Positions 1,228-48,163 are shown, counted from the first letter of the stretch. The stretch is 64,000 nucleotides of DNA from Kofleriaceae bacterium (GCA_043759355.1 JAYVLQ010000093.1:20989-84988), one strand, 5' to 3'. Notes: generated by a model from the letters alone, not told the origin. A program made the numbers and translations.

Positions 1228-1784
1228 GCCGTGCCGGCTTCGATCTCACCGATCGCTGCGTCGAGGTCCTCGGGCGCCAACCGCGAATTCGTGCGAATGC
1301 CCTCGAGTAGATCGTCCTTGGATCCGCCGGTGTTCTCGAGGTTCGCCACCGCGCATCTGGTGTGCATGTAGCCGGCACCGCGAGTCACCATGCTGCCGGT
1401 ATCGATCTCGCGCTCGACGGCCACCCGAAACGTGTCCTTGCCGATCGGCTCTTCGCACTGCATGCACTTCGCACGACCGGTCGGGGCGCGATCGATATAC
1501 GGGAAACCGCCCGGCTTGCCCTTGCCCTTCTTGAGCGCGTCGGCGATCGCCGTCTCGAGCTCGGCCTTGTTCGGGACGTCGCCCACGTAGCTGACCATCG
1601 CCTCTTTGAGCTCACCCGGCAATTTGTCGGCGGCGCAGAGAAGGTGATGCCACGCCATGCTCGGCGTATCGCTGAACTGGTTCGTCACTTCCACGCCGAG
1701 CCGAAGCTCGCCCTTGACGATGGTCTTCTTGCACGTGCGGCAGCTGGCGCGCCCAGACTTGGCTTCCTCGATCACGTTCGCCAT
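1224..1784 (-). CDS. Protein with two PARP-type zinc fingers (CxxC...HxxC twice)
   Basis: Tracked ORF 1224..2102 trimmed to the internal ATG at 1782-1784 ([20 protein letters not shown]...WHHLLC ... [14 protein letters not shown]...YMHTRC). The upstream 106 codons are antisense to the carboxylase gene and look nonsensical. Confidence 0.75.
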
Positions 1785-1805
1785 ACCCGGGACGCTACCG
1801 CAGGT

Positions 1806-3449
1806 ATGGCTCGTGTACCATCCAAGCCAGTGACCCGAGCCGAGCAACCGTACCCGGTCTTGCAGAGCCGGATCGATTCGCGGTCCCCAGAATTTCGCAG
1901 CAATCACGAGGCGAACAGCAAGTCGCTCGTCGGGCTGCAGGCAGCACTCGTCGAAGCCACCGTGGGTGGCGGCGAGAAGTACACGAGCCGGCACAAGGCC
2001 GCCGGCAAGCTGCTGCCGCGCGAACGGATCGAGCTGCTGCTCGATCGCGATTCGTACTTCCTCGAGCTGTGCGCCCTCGCTGGCAAGGGCGTGCCGGGTC
2101 ACACCGTCGGCGCCGGATTCATCGGCGGCATCGGCCGAGTCTCGGGCGTGGAAATCATCATCACGGCGAACGATTCGACCGTGAAGGGTGGCGCGATCAG
2201 CGAGATGACCGCGTGGAAATCAGGGCGGTGCAACGACATCGCCGATCAGAATCGGCTGCCTTCGATCTCGTTGATCGAATCGGCCGGCGCCGACCTGCCG
2301 AATCAATCGAAGATCTTTGTGCCGGGTGGGCGCGGCTTTCGCGACCTCACGAACCGGTCGGAGCAGAAGCTGCCCTCGATCTGCTTGGTGTTCGGCAGCT
2401 CGACCGCGGGTGGCGCGTACATCCCGGGGATGAGCGACTACACCGTCATGGTGCAGAACCAGGCGCAGGTCTATCTCGCCGGCCCGCCGCTCGTGAAGAT
2501 GGCGATCGGCGAGGAGACCAACCACGAAGAGCTCGGAGGCGCCGAGATGCACTCGCGGATCTCGGGCGTGAGCGACTACCTCGCGCGCGACGAACGTGAC
2601 GCGATCCGGATCGGTCGCGAGATCGTGGCGCACCTCGACTGGCACAAGGGCGCGCACGCGACGCCTCGCCCGATCGAAGCGCCGAAGTACGCGGCGGATG
2701 ATCTGCTCGGCATCGCGTCACCCGATATCAAGGTGCCGTTCGATCAGCGCGAAGTGATCGCGCGGATCGTCGATGGCTCGCGGTTCTCCGATTTCAAGCC
2801 GCTATACGGTTCGACCCTGATCTGCGGCTGGGCCCACCTGCACGGCTTTCCGATCGGCATCCTCGCGAACAACGGCACGCTGTTCTCGGAATCGGCGCAG
2901 AAGGGCGCGCAGTTCATCCAGCTGTGCAACCAGTCGAACGTGCCGCTGCTGTTCCTGCAGAACACGACCGGCTTCATGGTCGGCAAGAAGGTCGAGCAGG
3001 AAGGCATCATCAAGCACGGCGCCAAGCTCATCAACGCGGTGTCGAACTCGACGGTGCCCGCGATCACGATCATGACCGGCGCGAGCTACGGCGCCGGCAA
3101 CTACGCGATGATGGGTCGCGCCTACGCGCCGCGGTTCCTGTTCACGTGGCCGAATCACCGGATCGCGGTGATGGGCGGCAAGCAGCTCGCGGGCGTGCTC
3201 GACATCATCCAGCGCGATGCCGCGGCAAAGCGCAACGAGGCGGTCGACGAGGCCAAGCTCGGGGTCATGAAGGCGATGACCGAGCAGATGATCGATAAGG
3301 AAAGCGACCCGTACTTCGCGACCGCGCGGATGTGGGACGACGGGATCATCGATCCGCGCGACACCCGCACCGTGATCGCGATCGCGCTCTCGGCCGCCTA
3401 CTCGGCCCCCGTGCACGGCTCGACGAGCTGGGGAGTGATCCGCCATTGA
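1806..3449 (+). CDS. Acyl-CoA carboxylase carboxyltransferase (beta) subunit, methylcrotonyl/geranyl-CoA carboxylase type
   Basis: From ATG 1806 (alternative in-frame TTG 1860): [19 protein letters not shown]...[27 protein letters not shown]...[14 protein letters not shown]...[14 protein letters not shown]. The first 148 codons of tracked ORF 1362..3449 overlap the zf-PARP gene antisense. Confidence 0.9.
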
Positions 3450-35860: not shown

Positions 35861-37465
35861 ATGCTGAGCCCGACGATGATGGATGTCCCGCTGACGATCG
35901 ATTGGATCGCCGATCGCGCCGAGCGCTGGATGGCGGATGGCGAAGTGGTCTCGCGTCGCCCCGATCGCAGCTTGTCGCGCACGACCTACGGCGCGCTGAT
36001 CGGTCGCGCGAAGCAGCTCGCGCGCGCCTTGGTCGGCATGGGCGTGAACAAGGGCGATCGCGTGGCGACGTTGATGTGGAATCACGCGGAGCACCTCGAG
36101 ACCTACTTCGGCATTCCGCTCTCGGGCGCCGTGATCCACACGCTGAACTTGCGGTTGCATCCCGACGAGATCGCGTTCATCGCGAAGGACGCGGGCGATC
36201 GCATGTTGATCGTCGATGACGTGCTCGTACCGCTGCTCGAGAAGGTGCTCGCCGCGGGCGCGAAATTCGAGAAGATCTGGGTGGTCGGCAACCACGGCAC
36301 GTACGACAGCTACGAGGCGCTGCTCGCGAGCTCCCTGGGGGCTGATGTTGTCGCGCTGCCGAAGCTCGCCGAGACCGACGCGCTCGGCCTCTGCTACACG
36401 AGTGGCACGACGGGCCGCTTGAAGGGCGTCGTGTACTCGCATCGCTCGACAGTGCTGCACTCGCTCGTGGTCGCCCTGCCCGACTCGTTAAACGTGTGTC
36501 GCAACGACGTGCTGTTGCCCGTCGTGCCGATGTTCCACGTCAACGCGTGGGGCTTGCCGTACGTGTGCGCGATGACCGGTGCGAAGCTCGTGTTTCCCGG
36601 CCCGTACCTCGATGCGGCAAGCTGTCTCGAATTGATGGAGAGCGAACAGGTGACCTGCGCCGCAGGTGTGCCGACGATCTGGATCGGCATTCGCGATGCG
36701 CTCGAGGCGAACCCCACCAAGTACAAGCTGCTGCCCACGATCCGGATGATCGTCGGCGGCTCGGCCGCACCCGAGCAACTGATCCGCGACTTCGACAAGT
36801 TCGGCCTCCGCCTCTTACACGCGTGGGGCATGACCGAGACGTCGCCCGTCGGTACCGTGTCGCGGCTCTCGCCCGAGCTCGAGCAGGCGGACCTCGATAC
36901 TCAGTACAAGCAGCGCGCGAAGCAGGGTCGGCCCGTGCCGCTCGTCGATCTGCGCGTGCGCAACGAAGCAGGCGACGTGCCGGCCGACGACAAGACCAGC
37001 GGCGAGGTCCAGATCCGCGGGCCGTTCATCGCCGGCAGTTACCTGGGTGGCTACACGCCGGAGCGTTGGACCGACGACGGTTACTTCAAGACCGGCGATG
37101 TCGCGCGGATCGACAAGCACGGCTATATCCAGCTCACGGATCGCGTCGCCGATATGATCAAGTCGGGCGGCGAGTGGATCGCATCGCAGGAGCTCGAGAA
37201 CGCGTTGATGGGCCATCCCGCGGTCAAGGAAGCGGCGGTGATCGGCGTCGCGCATCCCAGGTGGAGCGAGCGGCCCCTCGCGGTGGTCGTGTTGAAAGAT
37301 GGCGCGCAGGTCACCGGCGAAGAACTGCGTTCGTTCCTCGCGCCGAAGTTCGCGAAGTTCTGGCTTCCCGAAGCGGTCGAGTTCGTCGATGCGATTCCAC
37401 GCACCTCGGCGGGCAAGTTCAAGAAGACCGAGCTGCGCGAGAAGTTCCGCGACCGGAAGTGGTAA
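35861..37465 (+). CDS. Fatty-acid-CoA ligase (AMP-dependent synthetase/ligase)
   Basis: LCYTSGTTGRLKGVVYSH, WGMTETSP, GYFKTGDVARIDKHGYIQLTDR, SGGEWI, SAGKFKK. Confidence 0.9.
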   Translation: MLSPTMMDVPLTIDWIADRAERWMADGEVVSRRPDRSLSRTTYGALIGRAKQLARALVGMGVNKGDRVATLMWNHAEHLETYFGIPLSGAVIHTLNLRLHPDEIAFIAKDAGDRMLIVDDVLVPLLEKVLAAGAKFEKIWVVGNHGTYDSYEALLASSLGADVVALPKLAETDALGLCYTSGTTGRLKGVVYSHRSTVLHSLVVALPDSLNVCRNDVLLPVVPMFHVNAWGLPYVCAMTGAKLVFPGPYLDAASCLELMESEQVTCAAGVPTIWIGIRDALEANPTKYKLLPTIRMIVGGSAAPEQLIRDFDKFGLRLLHAWGMTETSPVGTVSRLSPELEQADLDTQYKQRAKQGRPVPLVDLRVRNEAGDVPADDKTSGEVQIRGPFIAGSYLGGYTPERWTDDGYFKTGDVARIDKHGYIQLTDRVADMIKSGGEWIASQELENALMGHPAVKEAAVIGVAHPRWSERPLAVVVLKDGAQVTGEELRSFLAPKFAKFWLPEAVEFVDAIPRTSAGKFKKTELREKFRDRKW

Positions 37466-37475
37466 CTTTGCCCCC

Positions 37476-38105
37476 GTGCCGTCGGTCCGCGCAGCGATCA
37501 AGAACGCGATGTTCGACCGCGTACCGGGCCTGCTCCGCCGTGGCCCCGCGACCACCAAGCGCGTCGCGCTCACCTTCGACGACGGCCCCGACGAGCTGAC
37601 GCCGCGCTACCTCGAGCTGCTTGATGATCTCGGCGTGCCGGCGACGTTCTTCGTGCTCGGCGAGCTCGCGAACAAGTACCCGGAGCACATCCGCGAGTAC
37701 CTCCGGCGCGGGCACCAGGTCGCGGGTCACGGCTACGATCACCAGCGATTCACGAAGCTGTCGCGGCGTGACTTACTCGATCAGTGCAAGCGCACCGACG
37801 AGGCGATCGGCGGCCAGGCCACGGGCACGTCCTGGGTCCGCCCGCCGCACGGTTCGCTCGATTCGATGTCACTGATCAACCTGCGCACGTCGGGCTACAC
37901 GGTCGCTCTGTGGTCGCTCGATTCGTGTGACTACTCCGATCGCGATCCGGCCACGCTCGCGCAGCGCTGCGTCTCGACCGCTGGCGAAGTGCTCCTGTTT
38001 CACGAGGGCCAGGAGTGGACGCTCGATGCGCTGCCGCGGATCGTCGCGGCGATCCACGGCGCGGGCCTCGAGTGCGTGACGATGTTCGATTTGTTCGCGC
38101 GCTAA
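37476..38105 (+). CDS. Polysaccharide deacetylase (NodB homology) family protein
   Basis: In-frame GTG 37476 (alternative ATG 37509) after the ligase stop. VALTFDDGPDE, GHQVAGHGYDH, RPPHG. The upstream part of ORF 37299 overlaps the ligase gene. Confidence 0.8.
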   Translation: MPSVRAAIKNAMFDRVPGLLRRGPATTKRVALTFDDGPDELTPRYLELLDDLGVPATFFVLGELANKYPEHIREYLRRGHQVAGHGYDHQRFTKLSRRDLLDQCKRTDEAIGGQATGTSWVRPPHGSLDSMSLINLRTSGYTVALWSLDSCDYSDRDPATLAQRCVSTAGEVLLFHEGQEWTLDALPRIVAAIHGAGLECVTMFDLFAR

Positions 38106-39130
38106 CCGGCGCGGGTCGCCCAGAATTTCGACATGATCGGCCATAACCGATCCGCCGCCTTGCGCGAGACGACCGCGCCGACGTGGCCGCCGCCTTGGAC
38201 GACCAGCTGTTTGTCGACAGACGACGTGCGATCGACGATCGGGGCGGCGCTATCGACCGGCACGATGTGATCGTCGGTGAATGCGATCGCGAGGATCGGG
38301 CACTTGATCGCCGAGAGATTCACGGGACGACCGGCGAGCGAGAACCCGCCGGTGATCAGGCGATTCTCCCGATAGAGCTCCTGGATGTACTGCGCGTAGC
38401 ACGCGCCCGGGAACGAGACATTGTCGCTGCCCCAGCGCTCGGTCGCGAGCATGCCTTCGAGGAACTCGTCGTCCCACGCGCGATCGAGGAGCGCGACGGT
38501 CTTCACCATGTCGCCCGCGGGCTTCAACATCTTGAACGTCGCCTGCATCAGCGGCCACGGCACGTTGCCGAATGCAGCGATCATCGAGCCGATATCGAAC
38601 GTCGGGACGCGCGTCCACGTCGTCATGATGCCGGCCTTGTCGAAGTCCAGTGGCGCGGCGAGCGCGAGGTACGAGGCGACGTGCTCGGGGAATGCGGCGA
38701 TGTAGGTCGTCGCGAGTGTCCCGCCGAGGCAGTAGCCAAGCATGTGGACCTTGCCCGACGGGCTGTAGCGCGCCGCGATCCGCGTCGCGCGGCCGATGTA
38801 GCGGCCGGCGATGTCGTCCCACGTGAGGTAGCGATCTTCGGCGCCAGGTGTGCCCCAATCGATGCAGAACACCTCGTGGCCCTGCGCGACGAGCCACTCG
38901 ATCAGCGAGCGCTCAGGCCCGAGATCGAGCACGTACCAGCGGTTGATGAGCGACGGGACCATCAGGATCGGCGTCTTGTACTTCGGCACCGCCGGTGCGA
39001 AGCGCATGAGCTTCCACTTGTTCTCGGTCCACACCACGGTGTGAGGCGTCGCACCGACGAGCGCGGGGCCCTTCGGCGCGCGCTTCCACAGCGCGACGAT
39101 CGAATCGAGTGGAGACTTCTGCGGCTTCAT
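38102..39130 (-). CDS. phaC: Class III-type poly(R)-hydroxyalkanoate synthase PhaC
   Basis: Trimmed to ATG 39128-39130 (MKPQKSPLDS), which overlaps the upstream stop as ATGA. 342 aa, lipase-box-like GYCLGG. ...ILMVPSLINRWYVLDL... ...FTDDHIVP... ...GGHVG. Confidence 0.85.
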   Translation of the reverse strand: MKPQKSPLDSIVALWKRAPKGPALVGATPHTVVWTENKWKLMRFAPAVPKYKTPILMVPSLINRWYVLDLGPERSLIEWLVAQGHEVFCIDWGTPGAEDRYLTWDDIAGRYIGRATRIAARYSPSGKVHMLGYCLGGTLATTYIAAFPEHVASYLALAAPLDFDKAGIMTTWTRVPTFDIGSMIAAFGNVPWPLMQATFKMLKPAGDMVKTVALLDRAWDDEFLEGMLATERWGSDNVSFPGACYAQYIQELYRENRLITGGFSLAGRPVNLSAIKCPILAIAFTDDHIVPVDSAAPIVDRTSSVDKQLVVQGGGHVGAVVSRKAADRLWPIMSKFWATRAG

Positions 39131-40752
39131 CACGCGTACAGCGCTTCGAAGCGCGCGTTGAGCCGCTCGTAGACGGCCTTGCGGCGGAGCTTGAGCGACG
39201 AGGTCAACGTGCCGTCTTCGACGGACAGCGGCGACTCCGCGATGAAGAACTTCTTGATCGATTCGTAGCGCGCGAGCTCGGCATTGATCGCCTCGACGCG
39301 CTGGGCGACGAGCTGATCGCGCTCGCCGGCCGACACCTCGGGGCGCGTCCAGATCGCGGCGACGAGGTAGCTGCGCGCATCTCCGTAGACCACGAGCCGC
39401 TCGATCACCGGATCGTCGACGAACTTCGCCTCGATGTTCGCGGGCGGCACGTTCTTGCCGCCGGCGGTGACGAGGATGTCCTTCTTGCGATCGATGATCT
39501 GGAGGAAGCCATCCTCGGTCCAGCGCCCGACATCGCCGGTGCGGAACCAGCCGTCTTCGGTGAACGCGGCCTTCGTCGCCTCGGGATCCTTGAAGTAGCC
39601 CTTGAACACGTTGTCGCCGCGCGCGAGGATCTCGCCATCGTCGTCGAGGCGCAGCTCGACCGAGGGGAACGCCTTGCCGACGGTGTCGAAGCGATACGCC
39701 TCGGGCTTGTTGAGCGTGAGCGTCGGCGAGGTCTCGGTCAGGCCGTAGCCCTCGATGATCAGCATGCCGTGCGCGTGGAGCTGCTGCTTGATCTCGACCT
39801 TGAGGCCGGCGCCGCCCGAGAGGCAGAACCGCAGGTTGCCGCCGGTGACGGTCTTCAGCGCGGCCTTGGTATCCGTTTGCGCCGCGACGAGCCGCGCGAT
39901 CTTTTCCCAGTAGGCAGGCACCGACATGAACACGTGCGGGGCGATCATCGGGAGGAGCTCGAGCACATCCGCGGGCGTCGCGAGGTAGGTCTCCCATGCG
40001 AGCACGTTGCCGGCGCACAGCTCCCCCCAGCCGAAGATATGGCTGAGCGGCAACCACAATAGATCGCGATCGCCTTCTTCGAGGAGCGCGGCGTTGCTCT
40101 CGAGCCAGTCGCGGCCGTTCGAGCCGACGTTGCGGTGCGACAGCGGCACGCCCTTCGGATTGCCCGAGGTGCCACTCGTGTAGAGCATCTCGGCCGGGTG
40201 ATCGAGCTCGAGCGCGGCGAGGCGCGCGTCGACGATCGCGGGGGTGACCGCATCGCGGCTCGCCGCGGCTTGCACCGAGTGCGGATCCGAGACCGTCGCA
40301 TCGGTCGCCCACGCACAGCTGTCAAGATCGAGGATCTGCGGCTTCGTGGCGAGCTGTGCGAGCGCCTTCTCGAGCCGCGACAAGGGCTCCTTGCCCGCGA
40401 CGAACACGTGCTCGATCTCGGCGTGACCGAGGATGTATGCGACTTGATCGGGCGTGGAGGCCGGATAGATCGGCACGAACACCGCGCCGGCGGTCTGCGC
40501 GCCGAGCGCCGCGCTGGCCCACGCGACAGAGTTCGCGGCGAAGATCGCGACGCGATCACCGACCGCGACATCCTGATCGATCAGCCAGCGAGCGACGCCG
40601 CGGATCTGGATCGCGAACTGACCCCACGAGACGGGCTGCCACGCGCCGGCCTTGTCGCGAACCTGGAAGCGCGGCTTGTCGCGATGGGTCGCGACGCGCG
40701 AGAACACCGCGGCAGGCGCCGGCGCGATCGTGAGGAGCTGGCTGACGTCCAT
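39130..40752 (-). CDS. Long-chain acyl-CoA synthetase (AMP-forming)
   Basis: Trimmed to ATG 40750-40752 (MDVSQLLT). MLYTSGTSGNPKGVPLSH, GYGLTETSP, GWFRTGDVGRWTEDGFLQIIDRKKD, GGKNV, LKLRRK. Confidence 0.85.
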   Translation of the reverse strand: MDVSQLLTIAPAPAAVFSRVATHRDKPRFQVRDKAGAWQPVSWGQFAIQIRGVARWLIDQDVAVGDRVAIFAANSVAWASAALGAQTAGAVFVPIYPASTPDQVAYILGHAEIEHVFVAGKEPLSRLEKALAQLATKPQILDLDSCAWATDATVSDPHSVQAAASRDAVTPAIVDARLAALELDHPAEMLYTSGTSGNPKGVPLSHRNVGSNGRDWLESNAALLEEGDRDLLWLPLSHIFGWGELCAGNVLAWETYLATPADVLELLPMIAPHVFMSVPAYWEKIARLVAAQTDTKAALKTVTGGNLRFCLSGGAGLKVEIKQQLHAHGMLIIEGYGLTETSPTLTLNKPEAYRFDTVGKAFPSVELRLDDDGEILARGDNVFKGYFKDPEATKAAFTEDGWFRTGDVGRWTEDGFLQIIDRKKDILVTAGGKNVPPANIEAKFVDDPVIERLVVYGDARSYLVAAIWTRPEVSAGERDQLVAQRVEAINAELARYESIKKFFIAESPLSVEDGTLTSSLKLRRKAVYERLNARFEALYA

Positions 40753-40754
40753 GG

Positions 40755-41054
40755 CTAGGGGACCTTCCGTGCGTGGAGTTGTTCTTCGAGATCGAACAAG
40801 CGGCTCTCCATCTGGTTGAGCTTGTGGAGCGTGAGCTCCTGGTCGCGGCGGTTCGGCAAGCCGCACATCGACCACCAGCGAGTCATCGCTTGATCAGTCG
40901 CGGCCTTGGTCTTCATCACGGTCGTGAGCAGTGCGCCGGCCGGACCGATCACGCTCGGGTTCGAGAGCGCCTTCTCGACGAATTGCGTCGTCGCCTTTTC
41001 CCACGCTCCGAAACCTTTTTTCCATGTGTCCCAGATGTTCAGCATCGTCGTCAT
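40755..41054 (-). CDS. Small PhaE/PhaR-like putative PHA synthase partner (coiled-coil C-terminus)
   Basis: 99 aa, Trp-rich N-terminus (WDTWKKGFGAWEKA). C-terminus GLPNRRDQELTLHKLNQMESRLFDLEEQL resembles the 'LPTRxDvdxLxkrlxeLe' end of PhaE-type subunits. Its stop lies 2 nt before the next start. Confidence 0.5.
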   Translation of the reverse strand: MTTMLNIWDTWKKGFGAWEKATTQFVEKALSNPSVIGPAGALLTTVMKTKAATDQAMTRWWSMCGLPNRRDQELTLHKLNQMESRLFDLEEQLHARKVP

Positions 41055-41055
41055 T

Positions 41056-41856
41056 TTAAGGCGTGCTCACTTTCTGGCCGAGGGCGAACCGCCGGACGTA
41101 CGTGGCGGTCGTGAAGTCCTCGGCGGCTTCGTCTTGCCTGCTCTCGGCGCGCGCGACCTCGCCGAAACACTCGAACATGAAGATCGTGGTGCGCTTGCTC
41201 ACCACTGGCGTGCCGGTCGAAGGCGTGCGCACCACGTTCGTGCGCACGCGGAGCACCGGCGAAAACTCGACGTAGGGGACATCCAGCCGCTCGCCCGCAG
41301 TGACATCGACCTCGACCTTGTCGGTGCCGACGAACGGCAGGCCCGCGACGATGGCGCTCGCGAGTGCCGCGGTCGTCGAGTACGTCAGACCATCGGTCAA
41401 CGGGAACCGGAGCAGCGCGATCGGATCGGCGTAGCGGATCAGGGTCTTGCCCGCGGCCGGCGCTGCTTCTTGCGAGGCCGTGCCGTCGAGCCAGAGCGCG
41501 CGATCATCCTGGTGATAGATGCCGTCGAGCCCCGAGCCCGCATCGACCGTGAACTGGCCGGTCGGAAATTGATTCGCGTACCATTGCGCGGCGAGCTGGA
41601 TCGGGCCGAGCGCGACGACCGCGTCCTCGGCAGACTCGACCGAGAGATCGTAGATGCCGTTCGATGGCGTGAGGTTGACCGTGCGATTCACGCCCGCGTA
41701 GTAGTCGACCGTGAAGCCGTATGCGATCGGCAGCTCGTCGGCGGTGATCTGGCCATCTCGGTTCGGCACGCAGTTGGGCAGCACCGGGGTGGGATCGGGT
41801 TGCGGCGTGAGGTTCGTGCTGCACGCAGCCAGGCCGATGAGAATTGCAGCGCGCAT
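41056..41856 (-). CDS. Lipoprotein, paralog of the C-terminal domain of 44435..45364
   Basis: Lipobox LIGLAAC. VPNRDGQITADELP ... TIFMFECFGEVARAES...YVRRF aligns with APNHDGMIEANEVP ... YAWITECFGSVATAT...EVRRL. The ATG overlaps the upstream stop (ATGA at 41854-41858). Confidence 0.7.
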   Translation of the reverse strand: MRAAILIGLAACSTNLTPQPDPTPVLPNCVPNRDGQITADELPIAYGFTVDYYAGVNRTVNLTPSNGIYDLSVESAEDAVVALGPIQLAAQWYANQFPTGQFTVDAGSGLDGIYHQDDRALWLDGTASQEAAPAAGKTLIRYADPIALLRFPLTDGLTYSTTAALASAIVAGLPFVGTDKVEVDVTAGERLDVPYVEFSPVLRVRTNVVRTPSTGTPVVSKRTTIFMFECFGEVARAESRQDEAAEDFTTATYVRRFALGQKVSTP

Positions 41857-44438
41857 CAGAATGCAAACCCCGCGCGGACGCGAAACGACTGTGCGGTCTG
41901 CGCCTTGAGAATGGTGTTATCGAACGCCGCGCCCGGTGCGAACACGCCGTAATCGAGCGTGAGGGCGAAGCCATCGCGGCTGACGTAGCGGAGCTCGGGA
42001 TCGAGCTCGATGCCAAGCGCGCGCTGCCCGCTCGGCGTGGACGTCGCCTCGATCGCCCACGAGGCGATCAGCGCCGCGCCGGCCTCGAGGTGACCGCCGC
42101 CGACCTCGAGCAGCGTCATCTTCGCGTGCGGGCGCAGATACACCGCGTCGGTGATCGTGCCGATGACCTCGCGGAACAAGATCTGATCGATGTGGTAGTC
42201 GGGATGAAACCGGAAGTTGTCGACGGTGCGATCACCCGGCGCACTCGCCTGTGGTCCATCGAATTGGCCCGGGATGGTCGCGGCCTGGCCCGCGGCCGGG
42301 AAGGCGCCGAAGCCCGGCGCGCTATCGCCGCTCGCGTAGCCGAGATCGAAGCCAATCTTACCGACACCGACGTTGGCGTCGCTCTCGACCGCGAGGCCGA
42401 GCTGCTTCGACGTGATCGGCTCGGTCACCGCGGCGCCCGGAATCAAGGAGGGCTGCGCGACGTTCGCCGCGAGGTACGCGAGCTCGGCCTCGATCCGGAA
42501 TCGGTCGCTCGAGATCCGGAACCAGCCACCGGTCGCGGTTGCCGTGAAGCCACGCGCGCTGAGGTCATGGCTGGTGAAGCTGGTGACCGGCGCGGCGGTC
42601 GGCAGGTACGAGGCCGGGACGTCGCGATCTTGCGTGCGATGCGAGATGTAGACCGCGTACTCGACGCTGGTCTTGCCGGCGGCGGCACGGCGCGCGAGCG
42701 CCGCGGGCGAATGGACCTTGAGGATCGCGAGCGTCGGACCGGCGACCGCATCGCTCGGCTCGAGCGCGATCGGGCGACCGCCATCCTTGCTCGTCGTGAA
42801 CGGGCCGCTCGAGGTCCAGTCGTAGGCAATGGCGAGCAAGTGACCGAACAGCGGCGACACGAACGCCGCGCGATCCGCGGAATCACCATGATCGCAATCT
42901 TCGCAGTCGCCACCGTTCGCATTGATTCCGAGCCCGAAGTGCGCGCCCATGCGACCGACCGCGAGCGTGCCGGCCGGCGTGAGTGCTTCGGCCCACGCGC
43001 GCTTGACGACGACCGTCGTCGGCCGCTGCCCGCCGCTGGTCGCCGGCGAACCGCCCGCGAGATCAGGTGAGCCTCCAAGCGCGACGTTATCGAGCCAGTC
43101 GACGCGCGCCTTGACCGCCACGCCGACACCCGGCGCGTACGCCGCGAGATCGGTGCGCGCACGCATGTCGTTGCTCTGGATCAGCTGACCGCCGCCGAGT
43201 GGAATCGGAAAGACCGGCTTGCCGGTCGTATCGAGCCCGCGATCGAGATCGAGGTTGTAGAGCTGTGCCGTGCGTACGCGGAGCGCACCGTGAATCACGA
43301 GCTCGACCTTCTCGCGCGGCGCCGCGTACATCCGCGGCGTGAGCTCCGAGCCGAGCGACGCGAGGTCCGCGCCGAGCGGTAGCCGATTCGAATCGTCGAC
43401 GGGCGGCGGGCCGAAGCCTTCGGGCACTTTCGGGGTCTCTTCCGGATCCACGTGCGCGGCATTGCTGTCGTTGCCGCCGGTACCACCGCCGCTGCCGCCA
43501 CTCGTCTCGGTGGGCATGGGCGCAGGTGCCGGCTCTGGTTCCGCCCCCGCGCGGTCGGTATCGAGGAAGGTAACGAGATCCCTCGTCGAGGCGTTGTGAG
43601 CCTCGACCATCGGGATGTGGCCACAGTGCTGGTAGATCTCGAGTTTGGCATTCTGCAGCTCGTTGACGAGCCGATACGCGAAGCTCACCGGCGTCACCTG
43701 ATCCTGCGCGCCCCACAGCAACAGCACCGGCTTCGCGAAGCCACGCAGCTGCTCGTGCAGCCCGGCGAAGTGATGGCCACGCGCGACCGCGAGCGCGGCC
43801 GCCGTGGTGCCCGGTCGATCCATGCTGTCCTCGACACGCTCGACGCGCGCCTGCGTGACCCAGCGCTCGTCGTAGTACGCGAGTGGCGCACGGTCTTCCA
43901 TACGCTCCGTGTAGAACAGCCCGAACAGGAGTTCGCCGAGGCCCGATTTCTGCGCCCAGCGGAAGAAGCTCGGCACTTGATCGTCGTAGACGTACGCGTC
44001 GTAGAGTGCGACGCGCCGCACGCGTTCGGGATGCTGGACCGCCATCGCGACCGATACCGACGCGCCCCACGAGTGGCCGACGATCGCTACGTCGTCGACG
44101 CCGAGCTTGTCGAGCACGTGCCACACGAGGTCTGCTTGCGCGGCTGGCGAGTAATCGCCTTCGGGCCGGCTCGTCCAGCCGAAGCCCTTGAGATCGATCG
44201 CGATCACGCGATGATGCGCGGCGACCGGAGGAGCGACACTGGCCCAGCTATCGAGCGAGGCGCCGTAGCCGTGGATCATCACGACCCCAGGACCGGAGCC
44301 GGTTTCACGATAGCGCACGCGGATCCCGTCGACGTCGACGAACGTCGCATCGGCGGGCGCACCTCGAAGCGGTCCCGCATGGAAGCTCGGGCAACCCGCG
44401 AGGACGAGCGCCAACGCGCAGGTGGCGAGGGCTCTCAA
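41856..44438 (-). CDS. Lipoprotein alpha/beta-hydrolase fused to a large C-terminal putative outer-membrane beta-barrel domain
   Basis: Trimmed to TTG 44436-44438, which overlaps the upstream stop (TTGA). MRALATCALALVLAGC lipobox. VMIHGYG, GHSWGAS, CGHIPM triad elements. Gly/Pro linker. About 500-aa domain with alternating pattern ending ...FRVRAGFAF (C-terminal Phe). Confidence 0.75.
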   Translation of the reverse strand: MRALATCALALVLAGCPSFHAGPLRGAPADATFVDVDGIRVRYRETGSGPGVVMIHGYGASLDSWASVAPPVAAHHRVIAIDLKGFGWTSRPEGDYSPAAQADLVWHVLDKLGVDDVAIVGHSWGASVSVAMAVQHPERVRRVALYDAYVYDDQVPSFFRWAQKSGLGELLFGLFYTERMEDRAPLAYYDERWVTQARVERVEDSMDRPGTTAAALAVARGHHFAGLHEQLRGFAKPVLLLWGAQDQVTPVSFAYRLVNELQNAKLEIYQHCGHIPMVEAHNASTRDLVTFLDTDRAGAEPEPAPAPMPTETSGGSGGGTGGNDSNAAHVDPEETPKVPEGFGPPPVDDSNRLPLGADLASLGSELTPRMYAAPREKVELVIHGALRVRTAQLYNLDLDRGLDTTGKPVFPIPLGGGQLIQSNDMRARTDLAAYAPGVGVAVKARVDWLDNVALGGSPDLAGGSPATSGGQRPTTVVVKRAWAEALTPAGTLAVGRMGAHFGLGINANGGDCEDCDHGDSADRAAFVSPLFGHLLAIAYDWTSSGPFTTSKDGGRPIALEPSDAVAGPTLAILKVHSPAALARRAAAGKTSVEYAVYISHRTQDRDVPASYLPTAAPVTSFTSHDLSARGFTATATGGWFRISSDRFRIEAELAYLAANVAQPSLIPGAAVTEPITSKQLGLAVESDANVGVGKIGFDLGYASGDSAPGFGAFPAAGQAATIPGQFDGPQASAPGDRTVDNFRFHPDYHIDQILFREVIGTITDAVYLRPHAKMTLLEVGGGHLEAGAALIASWAIEATSTPSGQRALGIELDPELRYVSRDGFALTLDYGVFAPGAAFDNTILKAQTAQSFRVRAGFAF

Positions 44439-45364
44439 GGAATCAGCCTGCGGACTTCCGCGTCCGAGCCGAACTCGCTGTCCGGCGAGACCGAGGTTGT
44501 CGAACCAGCTGTCGCCGTGGCAACCGAGCCAAAGCACTCCGTGATCCACGCGTAGGAATGCACCGAGTAGTAGACCGAGCCGAGCTGCGACTGCGCGAGA
44601 ATGGTGCTGACGCGGAGGACCGGAAAATCTCCGTACGGCGTCGACATCGTGCCTGTCTGATCGACGTTCGAGACGTACTTCTCGGTGTAGTTCACACCGA
44701 ACGGGAACGCCGCCGTGGTTCCGGTTACCGTACTGCTGGACGTCCACGTCGAGCTCGCACCGAACGGCACCGCGAGAATCCTCGCCGGCGGGTCGTACGT
44801 GAGCTCGGTGGATCCAGAGCCACCGCTCGGCGACACGACGCCGAGCAGCGTTACGCCAGTCGAGTCGACGTGAAAAACGCCTTGAAGATCCGAACTTTTT
44901 GCGAGCGTCGTCACGTACGTCGCCGTCGAGAAGCTCGCGTCGGCCGCCCACCACTTGCCTGCCGGAGCGTCGAGCGTGACCGCGCCATCGGCATCGTTCG
45001 CGAGCGCACCGGTCAGCGACCACGTGCGCGTTTCGCCGCTCGAGGCGGTGCCTTGCGTGTTCCAGGTCGCGCTGGTCGCGATCCGGTAGTTCGCCATCTT
45101 GCCCGCTGCGAGCGGCACTTCATTCGCCTCGATCATGCCGTCGTGATTCGGCGCGCACAGCGCATTCGATCCGCTATCGACGTTGCTGCCACTACCACTG
45201 CCATCGCCGGCATCAGTCGTGGCCGGGCCGCACGTGCCGTCCGCGCGGCAGAAGTGCGAGGCGCACTGGTCACGGCTCGTGCACGGCGTACCCGAGCTCG
45301 ACCCGCACCCGCCGACGACGAGCATGCTGCAGCGCAGCACGAAATTAGCGATTCGGGTCGACAT
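44435..45364 (-). CDS. Lipoprotein with Cys-rich N-terminal knot and paralogous C-terminal domain
   Basis: Start chosen at MSTRIANFVLRCSMLVVGGC (45362-45364; the ORF extends to 45394). CTSRDQCASHFCRADGTC, Gly/Ser linker, then a domain paralogous to 41056..41856. Confidence 0.7.
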   Translation of the reverse strand: MSTRIANFVLRCSMLVVGGCGSSSGTPCTSRDQCASHFCRADGTCGPATTDAGDGSGSGSNVDSGSNALCAPNHDGMIEANEVPLAAGKMANYRIATSATWNTQGTASSGETRTWSLTGALANDADGAVTLDAPAGKWWAADASFSTATYVTTLAKSSDLQGVFHVDSTGVTLLGVVSPSGGSGSTELTYDPPARILAVPFGASSTWTSSSTVTGTTAAFPFGVNYTEKYVSNVDQTGTMSTPYGDFPVLRVSTILAQSQLGSVYYSVHSYAWITECFGSVATATAGSTTSVSPDSEFGSDAEVRRLIP

Positions 45365-45409: not shown

Positions 45410-45420
45410 TTGCGGCGCAA
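45410..45420. promoter_or_regulatory. Perfect 11-bp palindrome TTGCGGCGCAA (TGC-N3-GCA core) in the phaR/operon divergent intergenic region
   Basis: Read directly. It lies between start 45364 (minus) and phaR ATG 45445. Confidence 0.5.
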
Positions 45421-45444
45421 CAAAATCCGCCCTTGCAGTGCGAC

Positions 45445-46119
45445 ATGGCTCCCCGTAAGGTGCAGCCCGTGGCGACGGTCCTCATCAAGAAGTACGGAAA
45501 TCGCCGCCTCTACGATACCGGAGATTCGCGCTACATCACGCTGGACGAGCTCGCGACCAAGGTCCGCGGCGGCACCGATGTTCGCGTGGTCGATGCGCAG
45601 ACGGGTGACGACCTCACGCAAGCGAGCCTCGTGCAGGTCGTGCTCGAGACCGGTAACGCCGCGAAGTTTCTGCCGACCCAGCTGCTCACGCAGATGATCC
45701 GGCTCTCGGATGATTCGCTCGCGGAGTTCTTCAGCCGTTACGTCACCAATGCGCTCGACCTCTATCTCCAGGCCAAGCGCGGTGTGCAGTCACTCGGCGG
45801 TTACAGCCCGCTCGCGCAGATCCCGATGGCCGCGACCGATGCCCTCACGCGGATGTGGATGGGGTCGCCGTTCGGCGGCTACCCGCCCCAGTACGGCGGC
45901 GGTTACGCCGCTCCACCGCCGAGCTATCCCACGCAGGCTCCGCCTCCGGAGCCACCGCCGTTCGATGCCCACGACGTTCAGCCGGAGCCGGTCGTCGCGA
46001 AATCGAATGGGGATGAAGTCGCGGCGATGCGACGCGAGCTCGAAGAGCTCAAGCAAGCCGTGCGAGAGAGCATCAGCGCGCGACCCGCGGCACGCAAGAA
46101 AAAGAAACAGACCGAGTAG
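45445..46119 (+). CDS. phaR: PHA synthesis repressor PhaR
   Basis: MAPRKVQPVATVLIKKYGNRRLYDTGDSRYITLDEL is the hallmark N-terminal PhaR DNA-binding domain. Pro/Tyr-rich linker, charged C-terminus. The tracked ORF starts at TTG 45433. Confidence 0.85.
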   Translation: MAPRKVQPVATVLIKKYGNRRLYDTGDSRYITLDELATKVRGGTDVRVVDAQTGDDLTQASLVQVVLETGNAAKFLPTQLLTQMIRLSDDSLAEFFSRYVTNALDLYLQAKRGVQSLGGYSPLAQIPMAATDALTRMWMGSPFGGYPPQYGGGYAAPPPSYPTQAPPPEPPPFDAHDVQPEPVVAKSNGDEVAAMRRELEELKQAVRESISARPAARKKKKQTE

Positions 46120-46294: not shown

Positions 46295-46358
46295 CAAAAC
46301 TGATCACCCAACGCACCGCGTAACTCTATGTTTTTGTGTGGCTGAAATTTGTTGTCTA

Positions 46359-46369
46359 TTGCGTCGCAG
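46359..46369. promoter_or_regulatory. TTGCGTCGCAG (TGC-N3-GCA core), 27 nt upstream of the MFS start
   Basis: Read directly. Confidence 0.4.
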
Positions 46370-46395
46370 TATATTTTTGGGCTATCGCAGCACGC

Positions 46396-47724
46396 ATGGA
46401 GCGGACTCTTCAACCGTCGGTGCCCACCATGACCGCCCTGACCCCCGGCTCGCCAACCAGGGCTTATCGCCATTATGTCCTGGCGATCCTGGTGGTCGTC
46501 TACACGATGAACTTCGTCGATCGACAGATCCTCGCGATCCTCGGGCCTTCGGTCATCAAAGAGTTCACGCTGACCGATTCGCAGTTCGGCTTGATGTACG
46601 GCACCGCGTTCGCGTTGCTCTACACCACGCTCGCACTGCCGATCGCGTGGTTCGCGGATCGCAGCTCGCGCCGTAACATCATGTCGGTCGCGGTGCTCGT
46701 GTGGAGCGCTTTCACCGCGCTGTGCGGAGTCACGCACTCGTTCACCCAGATCTTTCTCGCGCGTGTCGGCGTCGGCGTCGGTGAGGCCGGTGGCGTCGCA
46801 CCCGCCTACTCGTTCATCGCGGACTACTTCCCGAAGTCGCAGCGTGCGCGCGCTCTCTCGGTTTACTCGCTCGGCATCCCGCTCGGCAGCGCGTTCGGGA
46901 TCTTGTTCGGCGGCTTGATCGCGCATGCCTTGAGCTGGCGCTGGGCGTTCGTGCTCGTCGGTGGTGTCGGCGTGCTCGTCGCCCCGATCTTCCGCCTCAC
47001 CGTGCGCGATCCCAAGCGCGGCGGCTACGAGACCTCGGCGGTCCTCGCCGACGCACCGGCCGCAGTCACGGCCACGCCTCCGTCGCTGCTCGAGGTGTTC
47101 CGCATCGTCTCGAAGAAGTCCTCGTTCTGGCTTCTCTCGTTCGGCGCCGCGGCGTCTTCGGTGTGCGGCTACGGCGTGGCCGGTTGGCTGCCGAGCTTTT
47201 TCAAGCGCAGCCTCCACCTCGGTGATGTCGATCGCGCCTGGTACTACGCCGGCATCACGCTGATCGGCGGCTGCCTCGGCGTCCTCGGCGGCGGCATCCT
47301 CGCCGACCGCGCGGGCAAGGCGAGCAAGCGCGCGTATCCGATCATCCCCGCGCTCGCCTTCCTCGTCTCGCTACCGTGCTTCTTCCTCGCGATGAACACC
47401 TCGTCGCTGGTGGTCGCGTTCCCGCTGTTCCTGATCCCGACCGGCCTCAACCTGATGTGGCTCGGCCCGATCATCACGGCGGTGCAGCACCTCGTGCCCG
47501 CTCACATGCGCACGACCGCCTCGGCGATGTTCCTGCTCATCAACAACCTGCTCGGCATCGCCGTCGGTCTCTGGTACTTCGGCTTCATCTCGGACAAGCT
47601 CAAGCCGCACTTCGGTGACGAGTCGCTGCGCTACGCGCTCTACACGGGCCTGGGCTTCTATCTGGTCTCGTCCGCGCTGTTCCTGCTGGCCTCGCGCAAG
47701 CTCACCAAGCACTGGGTTGAATAG
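46396..47724 (+). CDS. MFS transporter
   Basis: Start chosen at MERTLQPS (alternative Met at 46429). NFVDRQILAILGPS, WFADRSSRRN (motif A-like), LARVGVGVGEAG, 12-TM pattern. Confidence 0.85.
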   Translation: MERTLQPSVPTMTALTPGSPTRAYRHYVLAILVVVYTMNFVDRQILAILGPSVIKEFTLTDSQFGLMYGTAFALLYTTLALPIAWFADRSSRRNIMSVAVLVWSAFTALCGVTHSFTQIFLARVGVGVGEAGGVAPAYSFIADYFPKSQRARALSVYSLGIPLGSAFGILFGGLIAHALSWRWAFVLVGGVGVLVAPIFRLTVRDPKRGGYETSAVLADAPAAVTATPPSLLEVFRIVSKKSSFWLLSFGAAASSVCGYGVAGWLPSFFKRSLHLGDVDRAWYYAGITLIGGCLGVLGGGILADRAGKASKRAYPIIPALAFLVSLPCFFLAMNTSSLVVAFPLFLIPTGLNLMWLGPIITAVQHLVPAHMRTTASAMFLLINNLLGIAVGLWYFGFISDKLKPHFGDESLRYALYTGLGFYLVSSALFLLASRKLTKHWVE

Positions 47725-47836: not shown

Positions 47837-48163
47837 ATGCCTATGTCGACCGATACCAAGAACCAGCCTCCCGTCACCGCCACCCCCTCGATGCAGAACC
47901 CGTTCGTCGGATTTGACCCGATGACCGCCTGGGCGCAGGGCCAAGCCCAGATGCAGCAGATGATGGCGGACGCGTTCGGCCGCATGGCGTCGTTCGCGAC
48001 CGAGTACGCCTCGATGGAGTCGCAGTTCGTCGCCAAGGCGCAGGACGCGATGAAGAACTTCGCGCAGCTCTCGGCCGACGCGCTCGCGAATGGTGCGCAG
48101 CTCTCGACGCAGGCCCGCAAGGTCGGCCTCGAGAACGCGAAGAAGCTCTCGAACCTCGCGTAG
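47837..48163 (+). CDS. Phasin-like small helical protein
   Basis: 108 aa, Ala/Gln/Met-rich with predicted helices. Strong RBS and promoter with PhaR-type palindromes. The assignment rests mainly on context. Confidence 0.6.
   Translation: MPMSTDTKNQPPVTATPSMQNPFVGFDPMTAWAQGQAQMQQMMADAFGRMASFATEYASMESQFVAKAQDAMKNFAQLSADALANGAQLSTQARKVGLENAKKLSNLA

Follow-up and report, generated by a model that had tools for sequence, protein, structure and literature searches.

Polyhydroxyalkanoate (PHA) metabolism is normally regarded as cytoplasmic. Among outer membrane proteins, EstA (type Va), PlpD (type Vd), and NalP combine an N-terminal enzyme with a C-terminal β-barrel in one chain, and NalP also carries a lipobox together with its barrel; in such autotransporters, a barrel of 12 or 16 strands secretes the passenger of its own chain. 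The OprD/Occ, ChiP, LamB/ScrY, and MOMP channels take up small carboxylates or oligomers that are later processed by periplasmic enzymes, and we know of none among them that occurs as an enzyme fusion or as a lipoprotein. AlgE of Pseudomonas aeruginosa is partnered by a separate tetratricopeptide repeat lipoprotein and an inner membrane synthase, neither of which is present at the locus described here. We analyzed a 64,000-nucleotide stretch of a Kofleriaceae bacterium (GCA_043759355.1, JAYVLQ010000093.1:20989–84988; hereafter, the window) and found, inside a cluster of PHA genes, a gene whose product joins a lipobox, an α/β-hydrolase, a disordered linker of ca. 75 amino acids, and a C-terminal 18-stranded barrel ending in Phe in one chain.

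The gene is a single minus-strand open reading frame (ORF) that runs from a TTG at 44438 to the stop codon at 41856–41858 and encodes 860 amino acids without an internal stop. Its TTG start and the TGA that ends the upstream gene overlap in TTGA, and its stop shares one base with the ATG of the downstream gene; therefore, the three genes are packed as one transcription/translation unit. An in-frame GTG ca. 10 codons upstream of the TTG is an alternative start, which would give the identical mature protein after cleavage at Cys16. The G+C content was ca. 0.63–0.69 over the window, with no local break at the fusion gene. The motifs listed in a preliminary description of this DNA were all found, namely MRALATCALALVLAGC with the lipobox L-A-G-C, IHGYGAS (residues 55–61), GHSWG (121–125), and CGHIP (272–276), as were the Pro/Gly/Glu linker and the C-terminus FRVRAGFAF. 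The claim built on them, that a lipoprotein signal, a complete Ser-Asp-His hydrolase, a flexible linker, and an integral outer membrane barrel share a single chain, was borne out.

To place the fusion among its relatives, we compared 50 related Kofleriaceae/Haliangiales loci, one genome per species. The two parts lay in one stop-free frame in 44 of them, which argues that the fusion is neither a chance event nor an assembly error; in two loci (L038 and L039), the parts were in different frames, and in four, the contig ended before the hydrolase. The best 120 of 701 homologues were 817–961 amino acids long and all carried hydrolase Pfam domains; those that have a name are annotated as "TIGR04551 family protein" or "alpha/beta fold hydrolase" and come from Kofleriaceae or Myxococcales metagenome-assembled genomes. 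In the linker, residues 299–372 had a predicted local distance difference test (pLDDT) score <50 in the full-length AlphaFold model. Neither the homologue alignment nor inspection of the junction revealed a signal-peptide remnant in this linker, which terminates in a conserved GADLAxLGxELTPR; P0122, a free-standing relative, has this segment ahead of its barrel as well. A frameshift or assembly error joining two adjacent genes would account for the different frames in L038 and L039 and for a fused representative, P0201, that retains an apparent barrel signal peptide inside its linker. However, the single frame recurs in independent loci from many assemblies, the closest homologues are all of fused length, and the linker of the window protein is free of such a remnant and conserved at its end, so that this explanation is vanishingly improbable and the fusion is real. 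L038 (6046–8780) and L039 (6040–8675) fall within the fused clade (ca. 71–72% identity) and have a stop shortly after the hydrolase; their split could be a secondary fission, a frameshift, or a sequencing error.

Outside this clade, the same two parts are found as neighboring genes. At least 28 of 151 genomes sampled across the phylum had hydrolase and barrel matches adjacent on the same strand (among the matches listed, counted by eye). In all ten split loci fetched from this phylum-wide set, one of which belongs to the window genome's own family, the esterase and the barrel were adjacent genes in different frames. In most of the ten, a lipobox was seen on the hydrolase and a separate Sec signal on the barrel, with the N-terminus or C-terminal end not cleanly resolved in a few. 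This split module, consisting of a lipoprotein that we call LP1, the lipoprotein esterase, a barrel of the TIGR04551 family, and a second lipoprotein, LP2, has the same genes in the same order as the window locus and the same neighbors (PhaR, a PhaE-like ORF, an acyl-CoA synthetase, and PhaC), with 37–65% identity in the hydrolase and 38–57% in the barrel. It differs in that the esterase and the barrel are two genes, whereas they are one polypeptide in the window locus and, independently, in genome G082. No paper describing the module was found in the literature as judged by titles and abstract openings, with paywalled papers outside the coverage.

We built a quick maximum-likelihood tree of 55 barrel sequences (36 free-standing representatives picked among the best-matching relatives, 8 fused proteins, the barrels of the 10 split loci, and, as the outgroup, the paralogue from the window genome), using only the Shimodaira–Hasegawa-like approximate likelihood ratio test (SH-aLRT) for support. 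The fused clade of the window formed one group (SH-aLRT 99) nested inside split and free-standing forms (SH-aLRT 100), a topology by which the split state is ancestral and the fusion derived. A distant fused protein, P0162, was sister to a free-standing barrel (SH-aLRT 100). It is encoded in G082 beside LP1-like, LP2-like, and PhaC-like genes, and its short Pro-rich junction shows no trace of a signal peptide. P0162 is taken here as a second, independent fusion, in which case the fusion arose at least twice; by the Rosetta-stone argument, the lipoprotein esterase and the TIGR04551 channel would then act as one unit. The joining of an esterase and a channel inside a PHA cluster suggests that these parts work together in the cell envelope. 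P0201 (944 amino acids) was considered as a clean third fusion and rejected; ahead of the barrel, its linker (residues ca. 300–440) contains unusual basic sequence together with a stretch resembling a signal peptide, and the protein probably represents a split pair joined by read-through or by error.

The N-terminus of the window protein reads M-R-ALATCALALV-LAGC. Signal peptidase II substrates have an n-region with positive charge, an h-region of hydrophobic residues, and a lipobox of the pattern [LVI][ASTVI][GAS]C, and this arrangement marks the fusion protein as a predicted bacterial lipoprotein cleaved by that enzyme. Lipoboxes were also present in the split esterase orthologues. The segment PSFHAGP following the Cys (residues 17–23, window 44370–44390) is conserved in fused and split esterases, with F19 and H20 nearly invariant; such conservation directly after the lipid-bearing Cys is unusual for a lipoprotein tether.

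Abhydrolase_1 (PF00561) matched residues 52–279 of the fusion with an E-value of 7.5e-36 (124.5 bits versus a gathering threshold of 25.8). The catalytic triad was assigned by sequence pattern (GxSxG elbow, Asp after strand 7, and His after strand 8), not by residue superposition. In an alignment of 48 full-length homologues with 65–94% identity, Cys16, Ser123, Asp246, and His274 were invariant in 48 of 48. Since the catalytic residues never change among these homologues, the enzyme looks active, and the hydrolase appears catalytically competent. Its best fold match was CumD (1iun_A; Z 30.1, root-mean-square deviation [rmsd] 2.2, 255 residues aligned).

The C-terminal part matched the NCBIfam model TIGR04551 over residues 382–859 (profile positions 3–518 of 519) with an E-value of 1.6e-90 and 304.5 bits against a cut-off of 300, and the fusion scored 305.7 bits in a search of the genome; by this match, the margin of which is small, the protein is assigned to the TIGR04551 family. 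Free-standing TIGR04551 proteins of Myxococcota are 40–56% identical to the fusion's barrel and share with it the end-to-end match to the model, the motifs ASGDxAPGFG and NFRFxPDY(H/R)(I/V)DxIL(F/W)RE, and the terminal Phe. Typical members differ in having 500–650 amino acids, their own Sec signal, and no enzyme; in the fusion, a lipoprotein hydrolase and linker replace that signal. No paper naming TIGR04551 was found in our literature search.

The full-length AlphaFold model, made from a shallow alignment of close homologues, had a poor barrel (mean pLDDT 67.9), and fold searches with it gave hydrolases only. A 50%-identity representative library contained 922 relatives of the barrel at E ≤0.001, most of the nearest being free-standing proteins of 500–650 amino acids, and residues 376–860 were folded separately with a diverse alignment of 64 relatives. 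The barrel alone (485 residues) was predicted with 18 long strands, a mean pLDDT of 94.4, and a predicted template modeling score (pTM) of 0.92. The strand count that the preliminary description had left to structure prediction is thus 18, and the C-terminal domain is not a non-barrel fold in this model. In Foldseek, AlgE (4b61_A) ranked first (E 1.7e-14, TM 0.56/0.62), followed by MOMP, OpdK/Occ, and chitoporins. The exhaustive aligner VIA gave Z values of 25.0 for MOMP, 23.6 for AlgE, ca. 22 for OprD/Occ, 20.6 for ChiP, and 19.9 for ScrY/LamB, compared with 14.0 for FhaC, 12.9 for TamA (Omp85/TpsB, 12 to 14), and 10.3 for FadL. In an atlas feature search, the Alginate_exp set accounted for 27 of 30 named-cluster matches. 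The window barrel had no match to PF13372 (Alginate_exp) at E ≤1, and 4 of the 64 aligned relatives matched it weakly (best E 4.4e-05). AlgE is likewise an 18-stranded monomeric barrel (4xnk_A; Z 23.6, rmsd 4.7, 357 residues aligned), but its sequence is only 10–14% identical to the window barrel, and other 18-stranded channels match equally well. The OprD/Occ, ChiP, LamB/ScrY, and MOMP proteins share the 18-stranded fold (Z 19.9 to 25.0) but have no sequence-family match. Based on the model, the barrel is predicted to be a monomer-type 18-stranded channel of the AlgE/OprD/MOMP type, not a type V translocator.

The connections from odd to even strands in the model were 24, 22, 21, 22, 20, 14, 62, 11, and 13 residues long, and those from even to odd strands were 4, 4, 2, 16, 3, 2, 2, and 3 residues long. 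The 62-residue connection joins strands 13 and 14. By the usual rule for outer membrane proteins, the long connections would be outer loops and the short ones periplasmic turns, which puts both termini in the periplasm. The N-terminus of the barrel, and hence the linker and the hydrolase, would then lie on the periplasmic side, and an enzyme joined to that N-terminus should work there.

This topology bears on the idea, put forward in the preliminary description, of an enzyme tethered to its own translocation pore, in which the C-terminal barrel would carry the N-terminal hydrolase to the cell surface as in an autotransporter. The order of enzyme, flexible linker, and C-terminal barrel ending in Phe does resemble that of the EstA esterase autotransporters and of the lipidated NalP. 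However, type V secretion uses a 12-stranded (Va) or a 16-stranded Omp85-type barrel with polypeptide transport-associated (POTRA) domains (Vd), whereas the window barrel is 18-stranded, is ancestrally a separate channel, and matches substrate and polymer channels, with FhaC and TamA far below the 25.0 of the top channel. The fusion contained no POTRA or autotransporter Pfam domain at E ≤0.01. The family is mostly free-standing with its own Sec signal, and in most lineages the hydrolase is a separate lipoprotein, as in the ten split loci; the predicted periplasmic position of the linker and hydrolase weakens the idea further. Such self-secretion is very improbable. By the tests applied, the protein would not function in the manner of an autotransporter or of a known PHA depolymerase.

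Several observations on the barrel family stand apart from these comparisons. The long segment linking strands 5 and 6 contains a Cys pair in GGDCEDCDHGD (residues 512–515, window 42891–42902) that all 48 fused homologues share without exception; CxDC occurs in most of the wider family and is lost in P0162. The pair may form a disulfide or a metal site. The conserved arginines R387, R389, R426, R428, and R496 are candidates for residues that face the barrel lumen. The genome encodes a second, free-standing TIGR04551 protein (411.8 bits; L001, G000:C20:58487-63091, ORF 1498–3417 on the minus strand), which has a Sec signal, a Gly/Met/Pro-rich stretch, and the C-terminus LVLTF. Its gene has no LP1/LP2 neighbors and adjoins a large lipoprotein-like ORF with a CxxCH motif. 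In G115, a genome of the same genus that is ca. 98% complete, the whole-protein query matched nothing closer than a distant TIGR04551 paralogue (E 2.7e-30) and did not retrieve an orthologue of the fusion.

The genes around the fusion are arranged in the order LP1, fusion, LP2, PhaE-like ORF, acyl-CoA synthetase, and PhaC, with phaR divergent upstream (Table 1). Up to the contig ends, all 50 loci had this order, and it was largely preserved beside split modules too. phaR was divergent upstream of LP1 in 42 of the 50 loci (the contig ends first in the other 8), LP2 was present in 49, the position of the 99-amino acid PhaE-like ORF was conserved in 49, and PhaC directly followed the synthetase in 41 (the contig ends first in the other 9). 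PhaC-like genes also lay beside the split module in 10 of the 10 fetched loci. The 99-amino acid ORF matched PF09712 with an E-value of 0.0032 and 17.2 bits, below the cut-off of 25.7. At 237.7 bits, the best NCBIfam match of the synthetase, a long-chain-fatty-acid--CoA ligase, stayed below its cut-off. The 11 flanking ORFs scanned included no gene for a thiolase, a reductase, or a hydratase (phaA, phaB, or phaJ type), which leaves the synthetase as the sole cluster-encoded enzyme of precursor supply. LP1 and LP2 share 30% identity (E 4e-20) and are the only two copies of their family in the genome. Neither belongs to a Pfam or NCBIfam family, a profile of 24 LP1/LP2 sequences gave only chance-level matches against PDB sequences (best E 0.65), and the 455 homologues of LP2 are all unnamed or "hypothetical" and lack Pfam domains.

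Table 1 Coordinates of the fusion gene's parts and of the neighboring features in the window.
Feature	Position	Strand	Basis
Signal peptide with lipobox LAGC, residues 1–16	44391..44438	-	Sequence; Cys16 invariant 48/48
α/β-Hydrolase domain, residues ~29–296, Ser123/Asp246/His274	43551..44354	-	PF00561, CumD fold match, invariant triad
Low-complexity Pro/Gly/Glu linker, residues ~297–375	43314..43550	-	pLDDT <50; conserved end
TIGR04551 18-stranded outer membrane barrel (predicted), residues 376–860 and stop codon	41856..43313	-	TIGR04551 match, model, fold matches
LP1 lipoprotein, lipobox VVGGC, paralogue of LP2	44435..45364	-	30% identity; start alternatively 45394
LP2 lipoprotein, lipobox LAAC, paralogue of LP1	41056..41856	-	Sequence, LP1 match
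99-amino acid ORF, possibly a short PhaE-like synthase subunit	40755..41054	-	PF09712 C-terminal part, weak
Acyl-CoA synthetase (AMP-binding, FadD-like)	39130..40752	-	PF00501 E 2.5e-68
PhaC-like PHA synthase, class III type, GYCLGG box	38102..39184	-	TIGR01836; PhaC_N and Abhydrolase_1
phaR, PHA synthesis repressor, divergent from operon	45445..46119	+	PF07879 E 1.3e-24
Pair of PhaR-type palindromes, TGCGGCGCA and TGCAGTGCG, spaced 23 bp	45411..45442	.	phaR–LP1 spacer

The spacer between phaR and LP1 holds a double PhaR-type box. It was the only match in the window with ≤1 mismatch, 0.39 being expected by chance, and at least one such match occurred in 35 of 100 shuffles; because this count is not significant alone, we relied on the position of the boxes and their conservation across loci. 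A perfect TGC-N3-GCA box was present in the spacer of 47 of 48 loci, and two boxes 22–24 bp apart in 28 of 48. A 2025 study defines a PhaR motif core, YGCRNYGCR, supported by electrophoretic mobility shift assays in S. meliloti (PMC12542648). Both TGCGGCGCA and TGCAGTGCG fit this core as given there. With operator-like boxes in the promoter region and phaR adjacent, the cluster has the predicted make-up of a PhaR-controlled PHA operon. A third PhaR-like box, a perfect CTGCAGCGCAG palindrome (window 45329–45339), lies inside the start of the LP1 coding sequence, downstream of the spacer boxes.

We propose that the gene is an evolutionary fusion of two neighboring genes of a conserved myxobacterial envelope module, and, tentatively and at a little short of an even chance, that its product combines a substrate channel with an esterase that faces the periplasm below it, an arrangement providing the synthetase and the PHA synthase with acids. 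In this scheme, cleavage by signal peptidase II would leave a lipidated N-terminus in the inner leaflet of the outer membrane, and the ca. 75-residue linker would suspend the hydrolase in the periplasm directly beneath the barrel of the same chain. An ester substrate, for which hydroxyalkanoate oligomers or other external acyl esters are candidates, would come in through the barrel and be hydrolyzed beneath it, possibly with the assistance of LP1 and LP2 at the barrel. The released carboxylic acid would then cross the inner membrane, be activated by the acyl-CoA synthetase of the operon, and be polymerized by PhaC. The chief reason to think of a free acid coming in is that the cluster has a synthetase in place of the customary thiolase/reductase route. 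The fusion would fix a 1:1 pairing of enzyme and channel, which split systems may reach by assembly.

Several observations weigh against this proposal. The fold of the hydrolase is generic: dozens of esterases, dehalogenases, and epoxide hydrolases trail CumD by no more than 2 to 3 Z units, and the solved polyhydroxybutyrate (PHB) depolymerase PhaZ (8ynv, Z 28.6) ties with dozens of unrelated hydrolases. By sequence, the solved proteins closest to the hydrolase are the membrane phospholipase A 6i8w (E 1.4e-27, domain residues 17–131 only) and C–C bond (meta-cleavage product [MCP]) hydrolases. The preliminary description had suggested a PHB-related esterase; this agrees with the gene neighborhood, but the hydrolase scored far below the cut-offs of the PHA depolymerase models (NF050089, 76.4 versus 300 bits; TIGR02240, 42.9 versus 250.6 bits), which weakens its membership in these models, not its ability to act on such esters. 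No specific hydrolase match points to a substrate, and the esterase role is putative. PhaC matched TIGR01836 with an E-value of 5.5e-78 and 262.4 bits, below the cut-off of 365.3, although this was the best such match of the genome, and PhaR scored 94.3 bits against the TIGR01848 cut-off of 109.45. No inner membrane importer is fixed in the operon; major facilitator superfamily (MFS) matches with ≥60% identity occurred within 6 kb in ca. 20 of the 50 loci. The only lead for LP1/LP2 is the automatic atlas name of the LP2 clusters, "outer membrane lipoprotein-sorting protein family" (score 0.96). The periplasmic orientation stems from applying a general rule for outer membrane proteins to a predicted model. 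When the hydrolase was docked on the barrel, the score was 0.36 (runs 0.35, 0.36, and 0.40; best control 0.00), past a mark attained by solved complexes in 116 of 157 cases and by mismatched pairs in 2 of 215; at scores ≤0.60, only 18 of the 157 solved complexes passed, as did both passing mismatches. The runs agreed in at least 94% of contacts with a pLDDT of at least 84 for the partner, and the predicted complex gives weak support to the pairing. Finally, the best specialized-channel match, AlgE, is an exporter, so the direction of transport is not fixed.

The phospholipase match raises the possibility that the protein takes part in envelope-lipid turnover. Here, a membrane-tethered phospholipase or lysophospholipase would act on outer membrane or prey glycerolipids at the barrel, following the logic of MlaA-porin or PldA, and the fatty acids would be recycled via the FadD-like synthetase with PHA merely as a sink. 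6i8w is the best solved sequence relative of the hydrolase and ranked fourth in Foldseek (Z 28.5, in the fold searches with the full-length model); the synthetase resembles long-chain fatty-acid-CoA ligases in its best NCBIfam matches, the lipid anchor and the barrel would hold the enzyme at the membrane, and the atlas name of the LP2 clusters also fits. However, the match to 6i8w covers only part of the domain and is indistinct from those to the MCP hydrolases, lipid housekeeping alone leaves the strict linkage to PhaC, the PhaE-like ORF, and PhaR and the PhaR-type boxes unexplained, and the need for an 18-stranded water-filled channel in lipid hydrolysis is not evident. We consider lipid turnover unlikely.

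The likeness to AlgE leads to another alternative, export, in which the barrel would release a PhaC-derived oligo- or polyester or attach it to the envelope, and the periplasmic hydrolase would trim or transfer the chain. Comparable pairs are the lipoprotein PgaB beside the PgaA porin and AlgL/AlgX beside AlgE. AlgE was the top Foldseek match and second by Z, Alginate_exp was the commonest set in the atlas search, a few family members matched PF13372 weakly, and the module always adjoins a polymer synthase. Against this, PhaC-type synthases are soluble cytoplasmic enzymes, and no inner membrane synthase, co-polymerase, or exporter is fixed in the operon. The conserved acyl-CoA synthetase suits an incoming free acid more than an outgoing polymer, and uptake channels (OprD/Occ, ChiP, LamB/ScrY, and MOMP) match the fold about equally (Z 20 to 25). 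Export is, on this evidence, rather unlikely. In a related trans-envelope polyester branch, the barrel would team up with the hydrolase, acting as a transacylase, to secrete hydroxyalkanoate oligomers synthesized by PhaC or to link them to the envelope, and LP1 and LP2 would be the periplasmic carriers; this reading strikes us as quite improbable. If true, it would amount to a system for polyester secretion or decoration, with the two independent enzyme–barrel fusions marking the exit complex.

The PHA synthase operon, here and across many Myxococcota, includes a conserved outer membrane module behind PhaR-type sites. The novelty lies in the fused form, in its having recurred independently, and in the bearing of both on pairing and topology. 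The uncharacterized TIGR04551 family gains a testable role and a predicted fold, that of an 18-stranded channel of the AlgE/OprD type. If esters are taken up and cleaved as we tentatively propose, external esters, possibly other cells' polyester or lipids, would be converted directly into stored PHA, which would be relevant to soil carbon turnover and to work on PHA recycling.

Additional genes flank the cluster. On the plus strand at window 35861–38105, a polysaccharide deacetylase (CE4) and another AMP-binding acyl-CoA synthetase, the second here, converge on the end of the operon, and the CE4 deacetylase recurs near the cluster in about one third of related loci. Beside phaR, also on the plus strand, are an MFS transporter gene (46336–47724) and a 108-amino acid ORF without a family in a phasin-like position (47837–48163), both of which recur in many, not all, related loci.

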